64,000 nucleotides of DNA from Escherichia phage VerenaGrendelmeier_Bas101: the sequence record PQ850631.1, one strand, 5' to 3'. The translations under genes and the position numbers were made by a program. The notes under the pieces are model-generated. The model saw only the letters and a list, made by a program, of their open reading frames with translations, had not been told where the DNA came from and made no database searches. This document shows, one piece after another, positions 31,628-45,774 of this stretch. Every line of letters starts with the position of its first letter. Position 1 is the first letter of the stretch.

Positions 31628-32488
31628 TTAAAACTCTTCTGCGTCGGTCGGAGTTTCATTGACAGGACCAGCGGCACCGCTTGCTTCTTCCTGCTTGCTG
31701 CGGTCAATGTTAACGTTGCCGCCAACTACGTCATTGTGGAATGCCTTGGCGACTTCGTACAGACCTTTATCCTGCACCAGACCTTCCAGCTCAAACTTAA
31801 GAACTGACCAGGTGTTGCCGTCTTTGGACTGAGATGCAGTGCCCATGCGAACAATGTTCATAAAGGTCGGCGGCGTTTTCAGACCCTGCGGAGTCTGAAC
31901 TTTCTTCTGCTGCAGAGCGGTCATCAGCATGCGAGACGGCTTGATCATGGAAGAAGTCAGAGACAGCATTGCGCTACCAAATTCACCAGTTTCTTCGTTC
32001 AACAGAATTACGAAGTGGTTGCGTGTATCTGCGTAGTAAGGCGATTTCTTCTCGTGCACCTTGCCGTTTTCGTCCGGCACGAATACCTTACCGTTGATCT
32101 CAACAGCGCGGCCTGCCGCGACTTCTGCATCAACGTGCTCTTTGGTGAATTCACCTTTAAAGCCTTTATCATCGGACTCGCGACCGCCCCAAAGGATGAA
32201 GGTGCGTTTGAATGCGCAAGGGATGATCTGCACGCCTTTCTTGCCGTCATACAACTCACCAGTAACGGTGTTGTAAAGCATGCCAGCTTTTGCGCCAGGA
32301 ACGTGTTTTGGATCATCTTCGTCGACCATAGGAGACATCTTCTGCAGTACGACGATAAAAGGAATGGCATACGCATCGGCATCGGCACCTTCAAAACCAG
32401 CGCCAAAATCGGTCATGTCGACAAAATCAGCCATAGCGGACATCTGGGTGTTTTTCACTGCAACTTCGGTGGTTTCTTTCTTAGACAT
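31628..32488 (-). CDS. putative ssDNA-binding protein
   Basis: 286 aa; acidic C-terminal tail ending ...TDAEEF (SSB-like hallmark); in replication module. Confidence 0.35.
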   Translation of the reverse strand: MSKKETTEVAVKNTQMSAMADFVDMTDFGAGFEGADADAYAIPFIVVLQKMSPMVDEDDPKHVPGAKAGMLYNTVTGELYDGKKGVQIIPCAFKRTFILWGGRESDDKGFKGEFTKEHVDAEVAAGRAVEINGKVFVPDENGKVHEKKSPYYADTRNHFVILLNEETGEFGSAMLSLTSSMIKPSRMLMTALQQKKVQTPQGLKTPPTFMNIVRMGTASQSKDGNTWSVLKFELEGLVQDKGLYEVAKAFHNDVVGGNVNIDRSKQEEASGAAGPVNETPTDAEEF

Positions 32489-32547
32489 TTGATATTTTCC
32501 TATAGTATCAAGTTTCGTGGCAACCTGATTTCAAGATAAAGGTTAAA

Positions 32548-33105
32548 TTACTTTTTGCTTTTAGGCAAGGTTATTTTAGCTTCTTTGTATTCAAAAACGC
32601 TAATATCTTCACTAACTGGATTGCCCGCTTCCAGCTGTTCTTTTACAAACGACTTCAGTGTAGCAGAATGAACGCCTTGTTTCAACGTGGCTTCAACACC
32701 ATCTTCACGCAGTGCGGCAACAATCTCTTGCGCCTGTTCGATTTCTTCGCGACCGAACTCAGCCGTGACGCTGGACTTGATCAAGCCGCCGTAACCGTTG
32801 TTGACAAGCCAATCGAAAACTTTTAATTCGTTTTCTTTCTTGATTGAAGCATTCACCTTGGACTCGACTTTGATTTTGGTCTTGTCCTCAAGCTTGATTT
32901 CAGACACACCAAGCTCATCCATTACGCCAGGAAGCAGAACAGTTTTGATTTCACTGATGCGCTGCTTTTGCATATCAGCTTCATCTTCAAGCTCTGTCAA
33001 AGCTTCTTGGCGTTCTGCCAGTTCAGATACTAAGCGCGCAAGGCGCTCTTGAATGCTCTCAGGAGCGACCTGCGGCAAATCATCTTCCCAATTAATATTG
33101 CTCAT
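32548..33105 (-). CDS. hypothetical acidic protein
   Basis: 185-aa ORF in replication module. Confidence 0.45.
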   Translation of the reverse strand: MSNINWEDDLPQVAPESIQERLARLVSELAERQEALTELEDEADMQKQRISEIKTVLLPGVMDELGVSEIKLEDKTKIKVESKVNASIKKENELKVFDWLVNNGYGGLIKSSVTAEFGREEIEQAQEIVAALREDGVEATLKQGVHSATLKSFVKEQLEAGNPVSEDISVFEYKEAKITLPKSKK

Positions 33106-33441: not shown

Positions 33442-34965
33442 TTAATTCATCTTTTTGCCGTCGAGGATGTGATCAGCAAGCATAGACTTCATACTTAGTG
33501 ATCGCTGAATTTCTTCGTCGATGGTATCAACACCAATAAAATCAACATACAACACGCTTGATTTGGTGCCGATGCGGTGATTTCGGTCTTCGGATTGCTT
33601 GCGCAGCTCGTTGTCATAGTTGCAAGAATAATAGATTGCCAAGTCGGCAGCGGTAAGCGTGATTCCGATGCCTGCCGCTGCAGCGTGGCAAACCAACACC
33701 TGTGTTCCACCATTCGCGACTGTGTTCTTCTGGAAGTCATCAATTAAGAACTCGCGCTGCTCTTTGGACGTTTCACCGTTGTATACACCAGTGACCACGC
33801 CTTCAGACCCAAGCCAGTCCTTAATCTGGTTCATCTCTTCCTTAAAGATGGCCCAAACGATGAATTTGCGCTCTGGGTCGTCTTCCAGCACCCCTTCCAC
33901 ATAGTCCTTAAAGGCCGTGAATCGTGGGTTGTCTTCCATGTAGACCATCTCATCATACACCTTAACAAAGCCTGATGTCACCTGCTTCATCTTAGTGCGA
34001 GATGCGATCATCTCAAACTTAACGTTTTCTTCTTCGCCTTTGTACTCCATCAGATAGTTGTACTCATTCTTGAGTTCATCGTATACATCGCGCTGCTTAG
34101 GAGACAACTCGAAGTCGATAAACTTGTACACCTTCTCTGGAAGGTCCGGCAAGTATTCCGCTTTTGTCGCACGGAAATAGTGCGGCTCCATCAGCCGGAT
34201 AAGCTTGTCAAGGTTTTTATACATCGGTCGGCCAAACTGGTCTTTGCGCGGCACTTGCGGAATGCCATAACCGTTGCCGCCGATTTTCTTGAGAATGGCC
34301 TGCATCTCTGGGTCGTGCGCTTCAAGCAGCACTGTGAATTCAGAGTTGAATGCACGGAACGATTTGGTGCCGAGCAAGCCAGCTTCAAGGAAGTGATACT
34401 GCATGTAAATATCAGCAGGCGAGCGCGGCAGCGGCGTGCCGGAAAGTATGCGACGGGCCTTTGCCAGCCGTCCCAATTCTACAACCTTGATGGAGCGTTT
34501 GGCTGTGTTATTTTTGATACGCGTCGATTCGTCAATGATCATCAAACAGCGGTACTTCTTCAGGACAGACTCGATGTGTTGATAACCGACTGGTGTGTTG
34601 ACAGTATCGATGTTGAATGAGAAGATGCGCGCAGGCACTTCACCTTCAGGATAGTGATCAGCAAACATCTTCTCCCAAATGGCTTTACCCTTTTTAGTTT
34701 TCATCTTGTCATTTCCGCGCCAGTAATGACCAATCCATTTAATGGAAAGGTGTTCTGGTGCTTCACGACGAATCCAGTTCGAGTGGACACCGTTAGGAGC
34801 GATGACAACCATGGCATCAAATGCGCCAGCGGCGAAGTGTTTTTCAAACTCTGCCAAAGCAGTCCAGGTTTTACCAAGACCCTGTTCCATAAAATAAGCA
34901 AAGTATTTTCTGCGGCCTGCTTTATCAAGCGCCAATAATTGGTGGCGCATCCCTTGTGTTTTCAT
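33442..34965 (-). CDS. SNF2-family helicase
   Basis: 507 aa; Walker A-like GLGKT, DExx-type IIDESTRIKN and SGTPL motifs. Confidence 0.7.
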   Translation of the reverse strand: MKTQGMRHQLLALDKAGRRKYFAYFMEQGLGKTWTALAEFEKHFAAGAFDAMVVIAPNGVHSNWIRREAPEHLSIKWIGHYWRGNDKMKTKKGKAIWEKMFADHYPEGEVPARIFSFNIDTVNTPVGYQHIESVLKKYRCLMIIDESTRIKNNTAKRSIKVVELGRLAKARRILSGTPLPRSPADIYMQYHFLEAGLLGTKSFRAFNSEFTVLLEAHDPEMQAILKKIGGNGYGIPQVPRKDQFGRPMYKNLDKLIRLMEPHYFRATKAEYLPDLPEKVYKFIDFELSPKQRDVYDELKNEYNYLMEYKGEEENVKFEMIASRTKMKQVTSGFVKVYDEMVYMEDNPRFTAFKDYVEGVLEDDPERKFIVWAIFKEEMNQIKDWLGSEGVVTGVYNGETSKEQREFLIDDFQKNTVANGGTQVLVCHAAAAGIGITLTAADLAIYYSCNYDNELRKQSEDRNHRIGTKSSVLYVDFIGVDTIDEEIQRSLSMKSMLADHILDGKKMN

Positions 34966-38864: not shown

Positions 38865-39416
38865 TTATACAGTGTACGGAGTACCGTCTTGATTCAACCG
38901 CACGATGAACTTAAGGTCAACACCAATGATTTCACGCGTATCAAAGATCACATAGTTGTAACGACGCTGACCAGCAATGTTTGGGTTGGTGTGAGAGTCG
39001 GTCACAACTTCCTGTGCAACCTGAATGCCTTCTTCGCTAAAGAACTTACGCCATTCAGCAAGTTCAGCGGCAGTCACGTGCATGCCAAGGTGGCTGACCT
39101 GATTGTCATGCGCATCGATATATTCGATGTTTTCGTTAATCCAGTTGCAGCCCATTGTGTAGTCAAGGATTTCAAGCTCAAGAGGCTTACCAGCGCCGCC
39201 ATCAGTACCGTTGCCAGCCTGATAGTTGAAGCGCAAGTCAGCTTCATTGGTACAATCGTCGCGACGACCTTTAAAGTCATCAGCTTCAAATACGCGACCA
39301 GTAGCAACAACATGATCATGGAACCATTCTGTCAGGCCGATTTTAGCCAAGAAATCCTGTGCGCGCTGAGCATCTGGAATTGACAGGGCGATTTGTTCAA
39401 TTTTAAAATGTGGCAT
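38865..39416 (-). CDS. VOC/glyoxalase-like fold protein
   Basis: 183 aa; N-terminal FKIEQIALSIPDAQRAQDFLAKIGL pattern and HLGMHV. Confidence 0.35.
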   Translation of the reverse strand: MPHFKIEQIALSIPDAQRAQDFLAKIGLTEWFHDHVVATGRVFEADDFKGRRDDCTNEADLRFNYQAGNGTDGGAGKPLELEILDYTMGCNWINENIEYIDAHDNQVSHLGMHVTAAELAEWRKFFSEEGIQVAQEVVTDSHTNPNIAGQRRYNYVIFDTREIIGVDLKFIVRLNQDGTPYTV

Positions 39417-39512
39417 TTTGTTTCCTTAATTAAATATTATTGATTAATTACTGTGTTGTCTTCGTCCTGTTTCTTTTCAGGAGCGGGTGTGACAACTTCA
39501 AATGTTCGTGAT

Positions 39513-40196
39513 TTATTTACCGAATGGAATATCAGTACCAGACATAAAGCGCCATGCGCCCGTAATTAAGATATGGCGAATGAAGTCAGCAATTACTTGC
39601 GGCTCAGTCTCCAATCCGTTCATCAATGCCTTTTTCTGGTATTCAGCAGCATACTCAGGAGTCCAGCCGCGAGTCGCGCAAACAGCATCTTCAATCTGTT
39701 TGGACATGCCAGTACCACGTAGCTTGTTAGGACTAATAGAAAATACCGTGATCCCGTATTTAGGCGTAAGCTCGTGAGCCATCTGCTTGCTAATCATAAG
39801 CGCAGCGGCCTTGGAAGCATTATAACACAAGCTGGACGTCATAGGAATATGCGCAGCGTTGGAAACGATATTGATCACAAAACCTTTGTTGTCGATAAGA
39901 CTTTTCAGCGCGGCTTGAGTCGTGTTGACGAAAGAGAAGGCGTTGGTGTGCATAACGCGATTGAACTCTTCGTAGTTAACATCTTCAAACCAGTTGTTGG
40001 AGTTGACGCCAGCACAGTTGATCAAGCCTTCTACATCATATGGGCTTAAAATTTCTTTCATCTGTTTCGCGTCGCGGACGTCATATCCGTATGCTGAATC
40101 GATTCCAAGCACGTTATGACCGTAAGCGCCAAGGGTGTCAAAAATAGATTTACCAAGACCGGAATTGGAACCTGTTACAACAATTACTTTTTTCAT
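39513..40196 (-). CDS. short-chain dehydrogenase/reductase (SDR)
   Basis: 227 aa; Rossmann VIVVTGSNSGLGKS and catalytic YNASKAA. Confidence 0.7.
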   Translation of the reverse strand: MKKVIVVTGSNSGLGKSIFDTLGAYGHNVLGIDSAYGYDVRDAKQMKEILSPYDVEGLINCAGVNSNNWFEDVNYEEFNRVMHTNAFSFVNTTQAALKSLIDNKGFVINIVSNAAHIPMTSSLCYNASKAAALMISKQMAHELTPKYGITVFSISPNKLRGTGMSKQIEDAVCATRGWTPEYAAEYQKKALMNGLETEPQVIADFIRHILITGAWRFMSGTDIPFGK

Positions 40197-40261
40197 TTAT
40201 TTATCCTTTTTGGACTTCATTTCGATGAGATAAATATAACTCATCGAAACGCACAAGTAAA

Positions 40262-41134
40262 CTATTTATTGAAATTAATATTGTGGGTGTTGACGAGACG
40301 TTCACACATGGCGCTGTAAACACCATCATCGTGTATAGAGTCTTCGTGCTTCAGGCCGCTGATTGCAAAGCGTGTAAGCTTGACAATCTTAAGCTCGAAC
40401 AGATGCCACATGTGGTAGTCTTCCGGCGTTTTCAACGTTACGCCATTAGGGAAAAGCACCTGCATAACCTGGCCTACCATCACAGCGTTATCGCCATAGA
40501 CAGCGTTACGCTCACGGAAAGTCGCGGCCATCGCATCAAGAATATCGGCGGCGGTTGCCGGAGATTGTTTGATTTCCACTGCTTTAGTCTCTTCTTGCCC
40601 CGTTGCGCTTGGATCAACTGCTAATCGTTGCACTACTTCACCTGCCTTGCAAAGATTAAATGTAAAAGCGATTTTATTTTGAGCAACGGAATTATAATCC
40701 ATAGCTTCTTTACGCATCGCCGCGAGTACGTCTTGTCTGTCGTCAAACACATTAATGATTCGATAATCGCCGTGACGCAATGCGTAATATAGCCATTCAG
40801 ACTTCATAATAGTTGATGGACGTTTGTCGCCATAGTCTCTCATCTTGATTGTAAATTCATCAAAAGGGAAAACATTGTCCAGACGTTCAAAAGTCACTTG
40901 TCTGTATTTTTCTGGCCTTGCAGTCCAATATTCAACCGCCTCACCGCGAAGAGATGCCGACTCTACTGCTGATGCAATGTGAGGATAGAACTGATCATAA
41001 CCAATACCGCTGTAATAATCATCATAGTCTGACAACGGACCTGCCACCTTGATGCGGTCTAAGCGCCAACGGTCATCAAACAGCGTTCCGTCAAGGTCGA
41101 ATACGTTTAAAATTTCGCTGTTTTTAATGCTCAT
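40262..41134 (-). CDS. HAD-like phosphatase with C-terminal extension
   Basis: 290 aa; N-terminal motif FDLDGTLFDD and later VFDDRQD. Confidence 0.4.
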   Translation of the reverse strand: MSIKNSEILNVFDLDGTLFDDRWRLDRIKVAGPLSDYDDYYSGIGYDQFYPHIASAVESASLRGEAVEYWTARPEKYRQVTFERLDNVFPFDEFTIKMRDYGDKRPSTIMKSEWLYYALRHGDYRIINVFDDRQDVLAAMRKEAMDYNSVAQNKIAFTFNLCKAGEVVQRLAVDPSATGQEETKAVEIKQSPATAADILDAMAATFRERNAVYGDNAVMVGQVMQVLFPNGVTLKTPEDYHMWHLFELKIVKLTRFAISGLKHEDSIHDDGVYSAMCERLVNTHNINFNK

Positions 41135-41934
41135 CCTTTTGATACTCCATCTTTAGCAACTGGATTGTTGGTGATTGGCATCGCACTCCAAAACTGGATG
41201 CGTAACTCTTCTTGCTGTGCCGTGGTATCCATCCAATCACGATACCAAGGGCAATGGGCTTTGCCATGACGAGGAAACGCGCATTTACCCATACCGATGC
41301 ATTGCGGCTGTAATAATGGATTTGCCCACGGGTGCACCTTGAGGACTTCCGCAACCATTGCTCGGAATACTTCTTGATACTCGCCTTGTGTGCGCGTGCA
41401 CAAGCGGTTGGAAGCCATCTGTTGCAGCGTTCGCAAGTTGAACTTTGCCATGATATGCGTTTGCATATTAGAAGGCAACACGGCACGTGCATCTTGAATC
41501 TCTGCGCCAGCCGCGCGAAGCTCTTGATACAAAGCATCGATAGTCGCCATCGCATCATCCCACTTCTCTGCCAGTTCAGCGGCCTTCTCGTCATGACGAG
41601 TCCATCCCTTTGGATCATCCTCTGGGTAAGTAAACTTAGCAGGGCGAATCGCATCAAATGCAGACGACTCCTGAGCGCGGCTGGTGCGTTCTTGATATGC
41701 GCCTGTGCGTGTGCGCACCATCTGATGGGTCATATTCTTTGATACATCAGTGATGTCAAAGATATAGTCCACAAAGTCAAAAGGCGACTTGATTGTATCA
41801 AGCATGTAGCGCCAGTGCTCTTGCTTCTCTGATTCTGTCATCTCAGAGACTGGCTTACCAGTCATGCGCGTGTTCTTTGTTTCCAGCAAAAGGTCAAGTG
41901 CATCTTGGGTGTATCGAATTAATTCAACTTTCAT
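41131..41934 (-). CDS. ThyX-like flavin-dependent thymidylate synthase homolog (divergent)
   Basis: 267 aa; SKNMTHQMVRTRTGAYQERTSR aligns with the ThyX RHR...S signature region but has RTR in place of RHR. Confidence 0.5.
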   Translation of the reverse strand: MKVELIRYTQDALDLLLETKNTRMTGKPVSEMTESEKQEHWRYMLDTIKSPFDFVDYIFDITDVSKNMTHQMVRTRTGAYQERTSRAQESSAFDAIRPAKFTYPEDDPKGWTRHDEKAAELAEKWDDAMATIDALYQELRAAGAEIQDARAVLPSNMQTHIMAKFNLRTLQQMASNRLCTRTQGEYQEVFRAMVAEVLKVHPWANPLLQPQCIGMGKCAFPRHGKAHCPWYRDWMDTTAQQEELRIQFWSAMPITNNPVAKDGVSKG

Positions 41935-41947
41935 TTTAATTATCCTA

Positions 41948-42394
41948 TTAACGGTAATTCACTAGTTGCTGATCACCAGAGAAGGTGCAATGATAAACGA
42001 ATTGTGCGTTATAAAGCAACTGAAAACTTTTCTTTGGTTCATTATTAGAACTCATTGATGTAAAGATTTCTGCACCAGAACGGTTTTCACCAATCAGGTT
42101 AATAAAGCCGCCAGTTGAACGAGGCTGAACGAAAGTGAAACGCTGCATCCACGGAGTCCGGTTGGCACCTTTTCCGGTGAATCCCTGAATCTGAATATTC
42201 AGACCTTCTTGCTCGTTCACACCGATGTAAGTGGTAATTGTTGCGCCAGTCGTCGCTGCGGTCTTGCCGTCCATCGCTTCGCAATCGTAAACAGCGATTG
42301 AATCGGAAGTACGGACAGCGGCTTCAGTCGCTTCCATATACATGGTTCCGAGAATAGCAGTCGCGGCAAGCGCGATTCCAGTGATGCGTTTCAT
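41948..42394 (-). CDS. secreted protein
   Basis: 148 aa; signal-peptide-like N-terminus MKRITGIALAATAILG; AGAGGA RBS; own promoter. Confidence 0.45.
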   Translation of the reverse strand: MKRITGIALAATAILGTMYMEATEAAVRTSDSIAVYDCEAMDGKTAATTGATITTYIGVNEQEGLNIQIQGFTGKGANRTPWMQRFTFVQPRSTGGFINLIGENRSGAEIFTSMSSNNEPKKSFQLLYNAQFVYHCTFSGDQQLVNYR

Positions 42395-42414
42395 TTTCGT
42401 TTCCTCTATGAGTT

Positions 42415-42458
42415 CTGCTTCAATGATTAAAGTATACGCCCATTGAAGCAGAAAGCAA
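42415..42458 (-). promoter_or_regulatory. promoter (TTGCTT-16-TATACT) with flanking 11-bp inverted repeat (operator-like)
   Basis: minus-strand -35 at plus 42453-42458, -10 at plus 42431-42436; arms CTGCTTCAATG 42415-42425 and CATTGAAGCAG 42441-42451 bracket the -10. Confidence 0.5.
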
Positions 42459-42459
42459 A

Positions 42460-43455
42460 TTATTTATTAGCAATATAAGCAAATTTTTGATAGTTATTTG
42501 CTTTGATGAGTTTTTCAACTTCAGCAAGGTCATGAGCGACGTCATCAAGCAAAATGTTTCGCCAAGTAGCGAATCGACCGACACTGAATACGTTCAAATC
42601 CATAGTCAACTGGAGCAGTAAGGCGTGGCGCAAGTCTTTCGGAATGTCGACAATTTTGCCATACTTCTGGTCAACCTTTTCAACTTCTTCCAAAGAGATG
42701 TCATTCCATGAAAGACCAAAAGCGGTAAGAACTTCATCCACTTCTGCACGCAGCTTCATGTCGCGATAACGTGTAATGCCGCCAGCGGCTTCAACTGCTG
42801 CCGCGCTGACGCTTACCAATGGAATTGTTTCAATGATCAGCGTGTCACCAGTGATTGATGCGCGGTAAGTCCTTACAGAATAGTCAGGGAAGTAAATTGT
42901 TTGATACAACTCACACTTGCGCTTAATCTTAAAACGATAAACGCGAATATTTGCCTTATCAAACGAGAAGTCGAGCTTTTGATCAATACCAGCAAGCTTC
43001 ATCATGACTGGCAGCGGCGATGTGTTGATGATTGGCGTCTCGCTATAGCCGCAAAGCGTGTCGACCGGAGTATTAAAGAATATACGGTCACCCAGTTTAT
43101 CGACAAGTTGATCATAAAAGTCATCCGGCGCTATGTAGCGCGTAGCAGTTTGAAGCTTCATGATTGAGCGGCTGCCAAACTGGTTGGTGACTTTCATAGA
43201 GTACATATTGGCAAGGTTGATTGGGCAATGGTCGTGATAGTAGTTACCGCGAAAATACACGGCCTTGTCAACTGTCACTGCCTTAAAAGGGATTCCGGTA
43301 ATACGGCTTACTTCTTCGCCGCGAAAGCGTAGCAGCGCCTTGTGCTGTGGCGCTCGCTCCCCTGCTTCGTACACAATAGAGTTCGGGAAGTGACACGCGG
43401 TAATAAGTCCTGCCAAACCGCCGCCGATAATCATTACAGGTTGTTTCATGTTCAT
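42460..43455 (-). CDS. FAD-dependent oxidoreductase
   Basis: 331 aa; N-terminal dinucleotide-binding VMIIGGGLAGL. Confidence 0.55.
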   Translation of the reverse strand: MNMKQPVMIIGGGLAGLITACHFPNSIVYEAGERAPQHKALLRFRGEEVSRITGIPFKAVTVDKAVYFRGNYYHDHCPINLANMYSMKVTNQFGSRSIMKLQTATRYIAPDDFYDQLVDKLGDRIFFNTPVDTLCGYSETPIINTSPLPVMMKLAGIDQKLDFSFDKANIRVYRFKIKRKCELYQTIYFPDYSVRTYRASITGDTLIIETIPLVSVSAAAVEAAGGITRYRDMKLRAEVDEVLTAFGLSWNDISLEEVEKVDQKYGKIVDIPKDLRHALLLQLTMDLNVFSVGRFATWRNILLDDVAHDLAEVEKLIKANNYQKFAYIANK

Positions 43456-43479
43456 TTGTCCTTTGTGGGTGATATGAGA

Positions 43480-43508
43480 AGTATAATAGCTAAATTATTT
43501 TACAGCAA
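43480..43508 (-). promoter_or_regulatory. sigma70-like promoter (TTGCTG-17-TATACT) for FAD oxidoreductase operon
   Basis: minus-strand -35 at plus 43503-43508, -10 at plus 43480-43485; AAAGGA RBS downstream. Confidence 0.45.
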
Positions 43509-43534
43509 CAAGTCATTTCTATTTAGTACAGACG

Positions 43535-43562
43535 AAAAAAAGACCCACAACAAGTGTGGGTC
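43535..43562 (-). terminator. rho-independent terminator after Lys/Ala/Glu-rich protein gene
   Basis: GACCCACA / TGTGGGTC 8-bp stem, 5-nt loop, then 7-nt U-run on minus strand. Confidence 0.6.
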
Positions 43563-43590
43563 AATTACCGCTATATAACCGTCCTACAGG

Positions 43591-44430
43591 TTATTCCGCT
43601 TGATCACCGTCTTCAGCATCGTCGTTGGATTCAACATCGACAAACTCGATGTGGCCCATCTCTTCCAGCTTGCTCAGGTAGGAGCGAACGGAAGCGCCAA
43701 ACAGTTGATCTTTAACTTTCTCGCCCAGCTCATCGATAGACTGTGCCACGCCAACTTCGCCTTCTTTGATCGCAGCCAGAACGCGTCCACGGGTGGAATG
43801 CTCTTGCGGCTGGCTCAGGCCATTACCAGTGTAGATGAAGTGAGTAGCTTTTGCACGACGCTGACCGTTTGCCTTTTTAGCAGCCTTACGTTCTGCGATG
43901 GCTTTGCGACGTTCTTCAGCTTCTTTCTTACGCTGTTCTTTCTGCTGTTCTGCAGCTTCTTTCGCCGCAATCTTAGCAGCTTCACGCTCTGCCTTGCGTT
44001 TCGCTTTAGCTTCTTCTTTGGCCTTCTCTTTTTCGGCCTTCGCTGCAGCACGGGCTTGATCACGCTCTGCTTTCTTAGCAGCAGCTTGTTCAGCTTTCAG
44101 GCGCTTGGCTTCTTCTTTAGCCTTTGCCTTTTCGATTTCTTTCGCTGCTTTAGCGGCTTCACGCTCTGCTTTCTTAGCAGCGGCCTTTTCTGCACGCTCT
44201 TTAGCTTTCTTGGCTGCTTCTTCAGCACGCTTCTGAGCCTTCTCATCAGCAGCCTGCTTGCGTTTCAGCGCAGCTTCTTCACGCTTGGCTTGTTTTTCCT
44301 GCTCACGCTTCTGGCGTTTTTCTTCGGCTTCTTTCTTTTTAGCCAGGCGTTTTTCTTCAGCCACGCGACGACGTTCTGCTGCAGCTGCTTGTTTTTCTTC
44401 TTTAGATAATACTTTGATTGCTTCGGCCAT
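43591..44430 (-). CDS. Lys/Ala/Glu-rich low-complexity protein with globular C-terminal domain
   Basis: about 200 aa of KAEE/AKKA-type charged repeats, then non-repetitive acidic C-terminus; ATG 44430 behind AAGGA. Confidence 0.5.
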   Translation of the reverse strand: MAEAIKVLSKEEKQAAAAERRRVAEEKRLAKKKEAEEKRQKREQEKQAKREEAALKRKQAADEKAQKRAEEAAKKAKERAEKAAAKKAEREAAKAAKEIEKAKAKEEAKRLKAEQAAAKKAERDQARAAAKAEKEKAKEEAKAKRKAEREAAKIAAKEAAEQQKEQRKKEAEERRKAIAERKAAKKANGQRRAKATHFIYTGNGLSQPQEHSTRGRVLAAIKEGEVGVAQSIDELGEKVKDQLFGASVRSYLSKLEEMGHIEFVDVESNDDAEDGDQAE

Positions 44431-44589
44431 GTTCACAGTCCTTAAATAAATTAGTTTATTTTATATTCCCCGTTTGGGATAACTTAATTATGCCTTCAGT
44501 CGCCGCCAGTAGCAACTAAAAACTATGGCGGCGATGCCACTTTAATTAAACTGATTTTCAGTTTTATTTTTCGTAAATTTACGTCAACA

Positions 44590-45774
44590 TTAACGCGCTT
44601 TCAAATCACGGTACACGGTCAGATTCTTCTTAGCACGGGTGATTGCGGTGTACATCATCTTGGAGTACGGAACGCCGCGCAAGATTTCTTCCAGCACGCA
44701 CACATTATCCCACTCGCTGCCTTGCGATTTGTGCACCGTGATGACATAGCCATAGTCCATCCCGCCAACAGCGCGTTGCGCTTCTTTGCGCACTTCCTGA
44801 TCAGTAGAGAAGGAAAGAGGATTAATCTTAACCTTTATATCTTTACCATCAGTCAATGAACGCAAGTTGACATACATTATTTCATTCGACTCATCTTCAT
44901 CCCTTTCAAAGTCCGGCACTGGCTCATAGCCAATAACAATCCCTTGCTCGCCATTACAGAATCCTGGCCCGTGTTGGTTGAAGGTGCAAATAACCTTCTC
45001 GCCGATTCCTGGCATTGGTGTTATACGTCCGCTCACTTGCCGTAATAATGAATTCCATTTATCTTTGGTGCTATTATAGGAGCAAATAATTTGATCATCT
45101 TCGCCCATGAATTTCTTCAATGCAGTAACGCGCGGCGATTCTGCCAATACTTTGACGTCATCGTATTCACGCGGAGGAAGGCGGTTGCCTTGGCGAACGA
45201 AGAAGGAAGCACGGATGATGTTGGACTCTTTCCCTTGCCGCATGATTTCTGTTAACAGTACGTCAACGGCTTCTTCGGTAAAGTAGGCGGCGGCTTTTAC
45301 CGGAGGGACTTGTCCAATGTCGCCTAATGCCAGCACAGGGATGCGGTGATCAAGAAGGCGCTCTGTGTCCCACTCGCCAACCATTGAAGCTTCATCAAGG
45401 ACTACAAGATGCGGCTTTTCGTCCAGCTTTGACTTTCTCGAGAATATTGGCTCATTGTCGTCATTTACGCCGCGCACGTTATAGATGAACTGGTGAAGGG
45501 TCTTAGCGCCACGACAACCTTTTTGCTTTAATCTGCTTGCAGCCTTTCCGGTCGGCGCAATATAGATAGCGCCGTACTCACCGACACAACGGCGCACAAT
45601 CTCGCGAGCAATAGAGGTTTTACCAGTCCCTGCATAGCCAGCGATGAAAAACACGCGCTTCGTCGTTTTACCGTCTTGCAATCGCTTGTACCATGCAACG
45701 GCCTTTTCGATGGCGTCAATTTGTTGCGCGTTAAACTGAATCACTGGCTCATCATTAAATTCTGGAATGTTCAT
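44590..45774 (-). CDS. Dda/RecD-like SF1 DNA helicase
   Basis: 394 aa; Walker A GYAGTGKTS; C-terminal YTAITRAKKNLTV. Confidence 0.65.
   Translation of the reverse strand: MNIPEFNDEPVIQFNAQQIDAIEKAVAWYKRLQDGKTTKRVFFIAGYAGTGKTSIAREIVRRCVGEYGAIYIAPTGKAASRLKQKGCRGAKTLHQFIYNVRGVNDDNEPIFSRKSKLDEKPHLVVLDEASMVGEWDTERLLDHRIPVLALGDIGQVPPVKAAAYFTEEAVDVLLTEIMRQGKESNIIRASFFVRQGNRLPPREYDDVKVLAESPRVTALKKFMGEDDQIICSYNSTKDKWNSLLRQVSGRITPMPGIGEKVICTFNQHGPGFCNGEQGIVIGYEPVPDFERDEDESNEIMYVNLRSLTDGKDIKVKINPLSFSTDQEVRKEAQRAVGGMDYGYVITVHKSQGSEWDNVCVLEEILRGVPYSKMMYTAITRAKKNLTVYRDLKAR

Follow-up and report, generated by a model that had tools for sequence, protein, structure and literature searches.

A phage protein with a winged-helix domain and a long, charge-segregated α-helix: a possible linker-histone analogue of wifceviruses

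Introduction

Long segments rich in lysine and alanine are present in several groups of described proteins. Linker histones H1/H5 are abundant proteins with a winged-helix (WH) globular domain and a long basic extension, which is rich in lysine, alanine, and proline, poor in acidic residues, and disordered; the bacterial H1-like proteins AlgP and Hc1 are also abundant and have long Lys/Ala-rich basic extensions. Domain II of TolA, rich in lysine, alanine, and glutamate (K/A/E), is predicted to form a long helix with charges wrapped around it, and is accompanied by a transmembrane anchor and a dedicated C-terminal domain. The TolA repeat tract varies among strains, according to one study (PMC3477136). 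ER/K single α-helices of the myosin VI/X and caldesmon type are long and highly charged, lack a hydrophobic seam, and have charges alternating in blocks, with salt bridges between residues i and i+4 that wrap around the helix. The 11-residue-repeat helices of group-3 late embryogenesis abundant (LEA) proteins, apolipoproteins, and α-synuclein have an 11/3 periodicity that forms a straight stripe over many turns; this stripe is a lipid-binding apolar face with lysines at its edges, and the LEA proteins are also K/A/E-rich. In phages, basic proteins that accompany the packaged genome include IPI–III of T4, the Dar proteins of P1, and pVIII of fd. The subject of this study is a 279-residue protein encoded on the minus strand of a 64,000-nucleotide stretch of DNA (the window) from Escherichia phage VerenaGrendelmeier_Bas101 (PQ850631.1). 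It consists of a predicted 27-nm-long, charge-segregated helix with hendecad periodicity joined to a WH domain, a combination that is new among winged-helix and charged-helix proteins.

Results and discussion

Organization of the protein

The charged-repeat open reading frame that the initial annotation reported exists, and the peptide quoted there corresponds to residues 72–98 of its product. The protein contains 65 alanines, 51 lysines, 50 glutamates, and 25 arginines. Residues 1–194 are 93% K/R/E/D/A/Q and have a net charge of +28, and the last 85 residues have a net charge of −11. AlphaFold2 (AF2) predicts a short N-terminal coil, one unbroken helical rod, a globular domain, and a disordered acidic tail (Table 1). 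The AF2 model was built on a shallow alignment of eight sequences; the C-terminal domain modelled alone has the same topology. The prediction agrees with the initial proposal of a single long charged helix and, after it, a globular acidic C-terminus, but the helix comprises the 178 residues from 10 to 187 rather than about 200. The K/A/E/R repeats are a regularity of the residue pattern and not tandem repeats in the DNA, in which Tandem Repeats Finder detected a single match of two 15-nucleotide units. A box with the sequence L-(S/T)-x-E-(E/Q) recurs where the charged region starts in relatives, and probably functions as a helix N-cap.

The C-terminal domain has a winged-helix (winged helix-turn-helix) fold, with a three-helix bundle, a small β-sheet, and structural similarity to solved WH domains. 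Its elements in the AF2 model are β-strands 197–200, 229–231, and 261–264 and helices 213–222, 232–238, and 248–257. Helix 3 is the best-conserved stretch, and the junction motif RRxALAxRKA..K..G.RRP(K/R)ATH is conserved too. Conserved basic and polar residues are located on helix 3 (R249, S250, S253, and K254) and nearby or in the N-terminal arm (R191, R192, and R214), a conservation pattern that is compatible with helix 3 and the wing as the DNA-binding surface.

The initially suggested comparison to histone H1 gains support as an analogy, since the globular domain of H1 and the C-terminus of the phage protein share this fold. It does not extend to homology: the Linker_histone globular-domain profile is not matched, and the basic part of the phage protein is a Glu-rich, confidently predicted stable helix with 41 acidic residues and no proline in 190 residues. 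Searches of Pfam (including LEA_4) and NCBIfam at E <= 1 or 0.1, and of PDB sequences and Rfam, yielded nothing significant, and a Foldseek search of viral models returned family members only. Weak matches to AUGMIN8, DUF6240, and sR52 were dismissed as chance. A link to DUF3489, suspected from a similar motif, SVRGFLS, received no support when distant members were scanned against Pfam. BFVD contains structural look-alikes, about 200 residues long, from the Pseudomonas phages POR1 and PaMx11.

A basic stripe runs along the helix

The strongest period of lysine and arginine over the whole helix is 3.66–3.70 residues, which corresponds to an 11/3 hendecad, in 22 of 26 family members; the same power is reached by none of 300 composition-preserving shuffles. 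In the protein from the window the period is 3.68, the 11/3 resultant is 0.40, and Lys or Arg occupies each of the hendecad positions a, d, e, and h in 10–12 of the 17 repeats. Arginines are phase-locked at the centre of the stripe (resultant 0.6–0.9), and Glu/Asp, in many members together with Ala/Gln, are positioned approximately 180° away. Because the phases of Lys/Arg, Glu/Asp, and Ala/Gln segregate, the basic residues form a single face that spans about 100° of the helix, with an acidic/alanine back.

The transverse charge moment of the helix is far above that of shuffled sequences (z = +6.4). By contrast, the moments of three controls, domain II of Escherichia coli TolA, the charged helix at the N-terminus of IF2, and an ER/K helix, are smaller than the mean of the shuffles (z = −1.4 to −2.1), and none of the three contains the 11/3 Lys/Arg stripe. 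For TolA domain II, the top Lys/Arg period is 5.3, the 11/3 resultant is 0.11, and the charge moment has z = −1.4. The value for the ER/K control is −2.1; the phage helix shares with ER/K helices the high charge, absence of a hydrophobic seam, and prediction as a single rod, but its charges are on opposite faces, alanine accounts for 30% of its residues, and i+4 pairs from E to K/R are not enriched relative to shuffles (z = −0.4; K/R to E, z = +3.3).

The helix region contains 11 L/I/V/M/F/W/Y residues in 190, no aromatic residues, and 57% charged residues, and has no apolar periodicity of 3.5 residues. Since large apolar residues are scarce and proline is absent, the helix is unlikely to form a canonical coiled coil or to bind membranes through one face, and the membrane scaffold that had been put forward as one possible role is unsupported. 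Unlike in LEA proteins, apolipoproteins, and α-synuclein, the stripe is formed by Lys/Arg and there is no apolar face. The a/d/e/h spacing is the same as that of K40, K43, K44, and K48 of fd pVIII, which contact DNA along the helix axis. The phage helix is approximately ten times longer than the basic segment of pVIII, and the protein has no homology to pVIII, T4 IPI–III, or P1 Dar proteins.

The charged run is 102–187 residues long in complete relatives, and two relatives from IMG/VR reach 376–380 residues, which makes a molecular ruler of fixed length, another of the roles suggested initially, unlikely. The phase of the stripe relative to the RRxKATH anchor, measured without the last 25 residues of the helix, is nevertheless conserved throughout the family (circular concentration 0.81). 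Therefore, changes in length kept the register, and stripe and WH domain have a fixed orientation to each other.

Sequence constraint and expression level

All relatives possess the gene, which has 279 codons in all five wifcevirus sequences that were compared codon by codon; TolA, by contrast, has the strain-variable repeat tract. Summed over pairs of these five sequences, the helix region contains 100 synonymous and four non-synonymous differences, and the ratio of non-synonymous to synonymous differences per site (pN/pS) is 0.01; for the WH domain and tail it is 0.02. The low ratio in the helix indicates that the exact sequence is constrained, and not its composition alone.

The gene is real and not a low-complexity artefact, because tryptic peptides of an orthologue have been detected by mass spectrometry, pN/pS is 0.01, orthologues occur in 356 phage records, and the protein matches PHROG 4765 from end to end. 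A plus-strand open reading frame of 269 codons (43600–44409), rich in F/L/S/C, is antisense to the gene and is backed by no annotation or homologue. It mirrors the K/A/E codons and does not represent a gene; the minus-strand frame is favoured because of the mass-spectrometric peptides and pN/pS.

The codon usage of the gene resembles that of the major capsid gene, with Arg encoded only by CGT and CGC (CGT in the majority), Leu by CTG in nine of ten cases, and Glu by GAA in 76%. Codons of the neighbouring helicase, polymerase, ThyX, and primase genes differ from it. The gene also has a promoter-like site, a Shine-Dalgarno sequence, and a terminator of its own, which together with the capsid-like codons point to a protein made in large amounts. 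The text of the study of phage 14-1 by ONT-cappable-seq contains no gene-specific statement on the timing of its expression.

A possible architectural DNA-binding role

A nucleoid or DNA scaffold, which was among the roles suggested initially, is the best guess, and by analogy with linker histones H1/H5 an architectural DNA-binding role is plausible. The tentatively favoured reading is that of an abundant DNA-binding architectural protein, an analogue of linker histones, which is partly carried in the virion. It is supported by the basic stripe and its fixed orientation, the behaviour of the controls, the conserved surface of the WH domain, purifying selection, signs of high expression, the genomic context, and virion proteomics. 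From these features we infer that the protein binds nucleic acid and is packaged inside the head, and likewise the functions of its stripe and tail. The WH domain would dock on DNA, and the stripe, with its orientation fixed, would run along or between DNA segments and neutralize phosphate charge. The acidic back of the helix could stop further aggregation, and the acidic tail may vie with DNA for the stripe, like the acidic tails of HMGB1 and of phage single-stranded DNA-binding proteins (SSBs). The protein would be made in bulk, and part of it would accompany the genome in the virion.

In CsCl-purified virions of phage vB_Eco4M-7, the orthologue gp83 has a score of 1197.6, 422 peptide-spectrum matches, and an area of 3.1e9, compared with 559 matches and 2.0e9 for the portal, 358 and 2.4e9 for the sheath, and 333 and 4.4e8 for the major head protein; the intact C-terminal peptide of gp83 was also detected (PMC7048862). 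Usable tryptic peptides come practically only from the C-terminal domain, and the helix is nearly invisible to tryptic digestion. The protein is thus apparently abundant in one purified virion preparation, yet the searched portions of the text of the cryo-electron microscopy (cryo-EM) papers on E217 and Pa193, phages of the same lineage, do not mention it. A further point in favour is that the orthologue is not among the 31 proteins identified in DNA-free ghosts of the Pbunavirus SCUT-S1, prepared with LiCl and DNase, although the neighbouring helicase is (PMC6521218), and another is the "putative structural protein" label of LBL3 ORF66.

Several observations weigh against this reading. The virion association is inconsistent between two wifceviruses, since the orthologue in ECML-117 virions is represented by two peptides with a score of 3.2, a trace compared with 318 for the portal. 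The vB_Eco4M-7 preparation also held a non-structural helicase and a glyoxalase-like protein. The weight of the absence from SCUT-S1 ghosts is reduced by the different phage and method and by the poor detectability of the helix after trypsin digestion. The virion evidence is therefore suggestive, though inconsistent: it fits a protein travelling with DNA, but also sticky co-purification. The helix contains many acidic residues, unlike DNA condensers of the histone or protamine type, and the WH domain with the tail is net acidic. A straight α-helix is unable to follow the groove of DNA, and a super-period of about 22 residues in the spacing of Arg or Lys/Arg, which would match the DNA pitch, was not found. 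WH domains bind proteins as well as DNA. The conserved gene order says little about function, because the genomes of the lineage are collinear overall.

The glyoxalase-like protein of vB_Eco4M-7 (vB_Eco4M-7_77; positions 38865–39416 on the minus strand of the window) is prominent in the CsCl-purified virion proteome, where it scored 718 with eight peptides. This would mean either packaging of several "metabolic" proteins or a preparation that carried abundant cytoplasmic proteins.

Alternative functions

Binding of the WH domain to a protein partner rather than to DNA is rather unlikely, but accounts for several features. The partner could be the Dda-like helicase, the replisome, or a component of the capsid, portal, or tail, and the helix would serve as a rigid spacer or scaffold about 27 nm long. 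The stripe would ride on an acidic protein surface, such as the capsid interior or the lumen of the tail tube, or would pair with the acidic faces of neighbouring molecules into sheets or bundles; basic and acidic faces 180° apart would permit such face-to-face self-association. The structural neighbours of the WH domain include the protein-binding WH domains of RPA32C, ScpB, Scc1-C, and PolB1-binding protein, the WH domain and tail are acidic, the adjacency to the Dda gene is conserved, and the abundance in one virion preparation would also be explained. However, the length of the helix differs between genera, the searched text on the E217 and Pa193 cryo-EM reconstructions is silent on the protein, and the gene is outside the structural module. 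A role as head scaffolding protein in particular was rejected, because the gene is outside the head module and the Pa193 study assigns this role in Pbunavirus to gp24, a protease-scaffold protein.

It is unlikely that the protein is an internal protein of the head that exits with the DNA, during entry coats it or caps its ends, and shields it from restriction and other nucleases. The abundance in CsCl-purified vB_Eco4M-7 virions combined with the absence from DNA-free ghosts agrees with such an ejection protein, as do the basic, DNA-binder-like character and capsid-like codon usage. Nevertheless, ECML-117 virions contain only a trace of the protein, no capsid-targeting or cleavage signal was recognized, and the N-terminus shares no motif with the mature N-terminus of the capsid protein. 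The gene is in the replication module behind a sigma-70-like promoter, and neighbouring ThyX, HAD-PNKP, short-chain dehydrogenase/reductase (SDR), and flavin adenine dinucleotide (FAD) genes could explain insensitivity to restriction–modification (RM) through DNA modification.

A function as a substitute for SSB in the replisome is very improbable. The Bas100 genome has no annotated SSB, and none was recognized among ten unassigned proteins scanned against PHROGs and Pfam. The gene adjoins that of the Dda-like helicase, the acidic C-terminal tail is typical of SSBs, and the positive charges of the stripe number about 1.6 per nm, which is close to the phosphate spacing of extended single-stranded DNA. 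However, the AF2 model is a helix with a WH domain and not an oligonucleotide/oligosaccharide-binding fold, no SSB family is matched, the helix has no aromatic residues, and purely electrostatic binding would not tell single-stranded from double-stranded DNA. The phage may use the SSB of the host, and SSBs are not expected in virions.

Homology to TolA, or a protein spanning the membrane or periplasm, which is the reading behind several GenBank names and the initial annotation's comparison to TolA domain II, is refuted on the features tested: the K/A/E-rich composition, which yields BLAST matches to TolA, and a long predicted helix of similar length are shared, but the N-terminus MAEAIKVLSKEEKQ differs from that of E. 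coli TolA, which has IIISAVLHVILFAALIW, no signal peptide, transmembrane or hydrophobic segment is present anywhere, the Pfam and NCBIfam profiles of domain III are not matched, the C-terminal WH domain matches neither a TolA family nor a TolA structure, the helix lacks an apolar face, and the charge patterns differ.

Distribution and gene order

The protein belongs to PHROG 4765, a family of unknown function (E = 2.4e-84, residues 1–279 aligned to profile positions 14–271 of 294). A tblastn search with the C-terminal 89 residues matched 356 phage records, 293 of which are from Pseudomonas phages; among the matches listed, the latter include PB1-like Pbunavirus such as E217 (gp68), 14-1 (gp67), PB1, and LBL3 (ORF66). 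Other matches are from Wifcevirus, Myosmarvirus (MTx and TropicalSun), Kylevirus (Pantoea phage PA1), Burkholderia phage BcepF1, Xanthomonas phage XcP1, and an Aeromonas phage. When 1.84 billion representative proteins were scanned exhaustively with HMMER and a C-terminal-domain profile, only 37 clusters were found, and the domain is C-terminal in full-length members; cluster P0039 (1970 residues, E = 7e-4) is a borderline repeat match. Word-indexed protein searches yielded few matches, with four for the C-terminal domain alone and eight in an alignment search that was swamped by low-complexity words. The N-terminal part is K/A/E/R-rich in almost all members retrieved; the distant members P0036–P0038 differ (e.g. 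..LVATYNALTGKSISKF..). Because distant relatives of the domain carry other, non-K/A/E N-termini, the winged-helix module may predate its fusion to the charged helix.

The genes for a Dda-like helicase and the 279-residue protein, a terminator, and genes for a putative FAD protein of about 330 residues, ThyX, and a HAD/PNKP protein follow each other in this order in every genus examined (>7) and in nearly all of the 32 IMG/VR loci on contigs that reach far enough. The gene is part of a module for replication and nucleotide metabolism. It is named "TolA protein", by composition only, in the records of ECML-117, FEC19, vB_Eco4M-7, Epa12, and Gekk3-15, whereas others label it "hypothetical". LBL3 ORF66 is labelled "putative structural protein", a label on which the papers on JG024, KPP12, and KTN6 contain nothing.

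The gene and its surroundings

The region 43400–44600 is 99.9% identical to that of HansTraber_Bas100 (PQ850605.1), a Wifcevirus myovirus of the BASEL collection, in which the counterpart, Bas100_0052, is labelled "hypothetical protein". In 27 other Wifcevirus records the identity is 97–99%, and all 28 match over the entire query. The ATG start codon is preferred over a GTG two codons upstream because of the position of the Shine-Dalgarno sequence (Table 1). A promoter-like site comparable to that of the window is present upstream of the MTx orthologue, and none was found upstream of the orthologues in E217 and Gekk3-15. The clean terminator described initially was found, and equivalent terminators follow the orthologues in E217, MTx, LBL3, and XcP1.

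Table 1 Features of the gene and its product in the window
Feature	Position	Strand	Description
Coding sequence, 279-residue protein	43591..44430	−	ATG 44428-44430, stop 43591-43593; orthologue of Bas100_0052; PHROG 4765
Candidate sigma-70-type promoter	44487..44515	−	TTGCTA-17 nt-CATAAT; predicted by consensus scan, 9/12 matches
Shine-Dalgarno sequence AAGGA	44439..44443	−	8 nt upstream of ATG; read from sequence
Intrinsic terminator	43535..43562	−	GACCCACA-CTTGT-TGTGGGTC then T7; 8-bp G+C-rich stem, 5-nt loop; scan and fold
Residues 1-9, short N-terminal segment	44404..44430	−	AF2 coil; ends in putative helix N-cap box L-S-K-E-E (relatives L-T-x-E-Q)
Residues 10-187, single unbroken α-helix	43870..44403	−	AF2, predicted local distance difference test (pLDDT) mostly >90; 178 residues at 0.15 nm per residue, ~27 nm
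Residues 188-196, helix C-cap and basic arm linking helix to domain	43843..43869	−	..NGQRRAKAT..; conserved; R191, R192, T196 invariant or nearly so
Residues 197-264, winged-helix-fold domain	43639..43842	−	β-H1-β-H2-H3-β; H3 motif LYGxSVRSYLSKLEEMGH nearly invariant
Residues 265-279, disordered acidic tail	43594..43638	−	VESNDDAEDGDQAE; pLDDT <50 at 268-279; tail length varies in relatives, always acidic

A stable hairpin at 44500–44536 on the minus strand, between the stop codon of the Dda gene and the 279-residue protein gene, has a folding energy of −22 kcal/mol (z = −3.7) and occurs only once in the window. The −35 hexamer of the predicted promoter shares nucleotides with the 3′ arm, and the hairpin is not followed by a U-run. 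It may act in RNA processing, RNA stability, or regulation.

Directly downstream, positions 38865–43455 of the minus strand encode a glyoxalase-like protein (weak Pfam match), a FabG-like SDR, a HAD/PNKP-phosphatase, ThyX, and a 331-residue protein. The last is named UDP-galactopyranose mutase in some records, and belongs to PHROG 4828, of unknown function, with no Pfam or NCBIfam match. It may be speculated that the ThyX, HAD-PNKP, SDR, glyoxalase-like, and FAD genes form a DNA or nucleotide modification pathway, which would be a second candidate for the cause of RM insensitivity. Amid these nucleotide-metabolism genes, positions 41948–42394 (minus strand) encode a 148-residue protein with a signal-peptide-like N-terminus, MKRITGIALAATAILGTMYMEA, and no PHROG or Pfam match.

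A minus-strand gene at 33442–34965, annotated as "DNA helicase", encodes an SNF2-related domain (PF00176, E = 1e-21) and Helicase_C; a Pbunavirus paper likens the orthologue to chromatin remodellers of the Ino80/CHD1L type (PMC12390725). A link between this ATPase and the 279-residue protein is speculative. Two adjacent proteins encoded at 31628–33105 (minus strand) match the Pam3 gp34-like (PF23977, E = 4e-86) and Pam3 gp33-like (DUF7307, E = 3e-37) families; both families were recently defined, and both genes are labelled hypothetical in Bas100.

Implications

The gene for the 279-residue protein is a core gene of the lineage that includes Pbunavirus, Wifcevirus, Myosmarvirus, Bcepfunavirus, and Carpasinavirus, and it is misnamed or unnamed in the records examined. 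"TolA protein" labels on K/A/E-rich phage proteins can thus conceal a specific architecture. Members of Pbunavirus are described as being among those phages that personalised therapy against Pseudomonas aeruginosa uses most (PMC11990801). The 27-nm helix with a straight basic face, an acidic back, and near-absolute purifying selection is an unusual design, which could serve as a rigid polar rod on the nanometre scale. If the DNA-binding role is correct, the hendecad Arg/Lys stripe would represent a previously undescribed way for a long single α-helix to bind along DNA.

Wifceviruses are reported to be insensitive to RM and to have no known mechanism of protection (PMC11990801). A DNA-coating protein made in bulk and possibly co-injected is, speculatively, one candidate for the evasion of restriction by these phages. 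In the most elaborate form of this idea, which is quite improbable, the protein would be a rod-shaped WH analogue of linker histones that is packaged and co-injected and coats phage DNA during entry and replication, possibly together with an SNF2-type translocase. If true, such a packaged analogue would explain the resistance of wifceviruses to nearly all tested RM and other defence systems.

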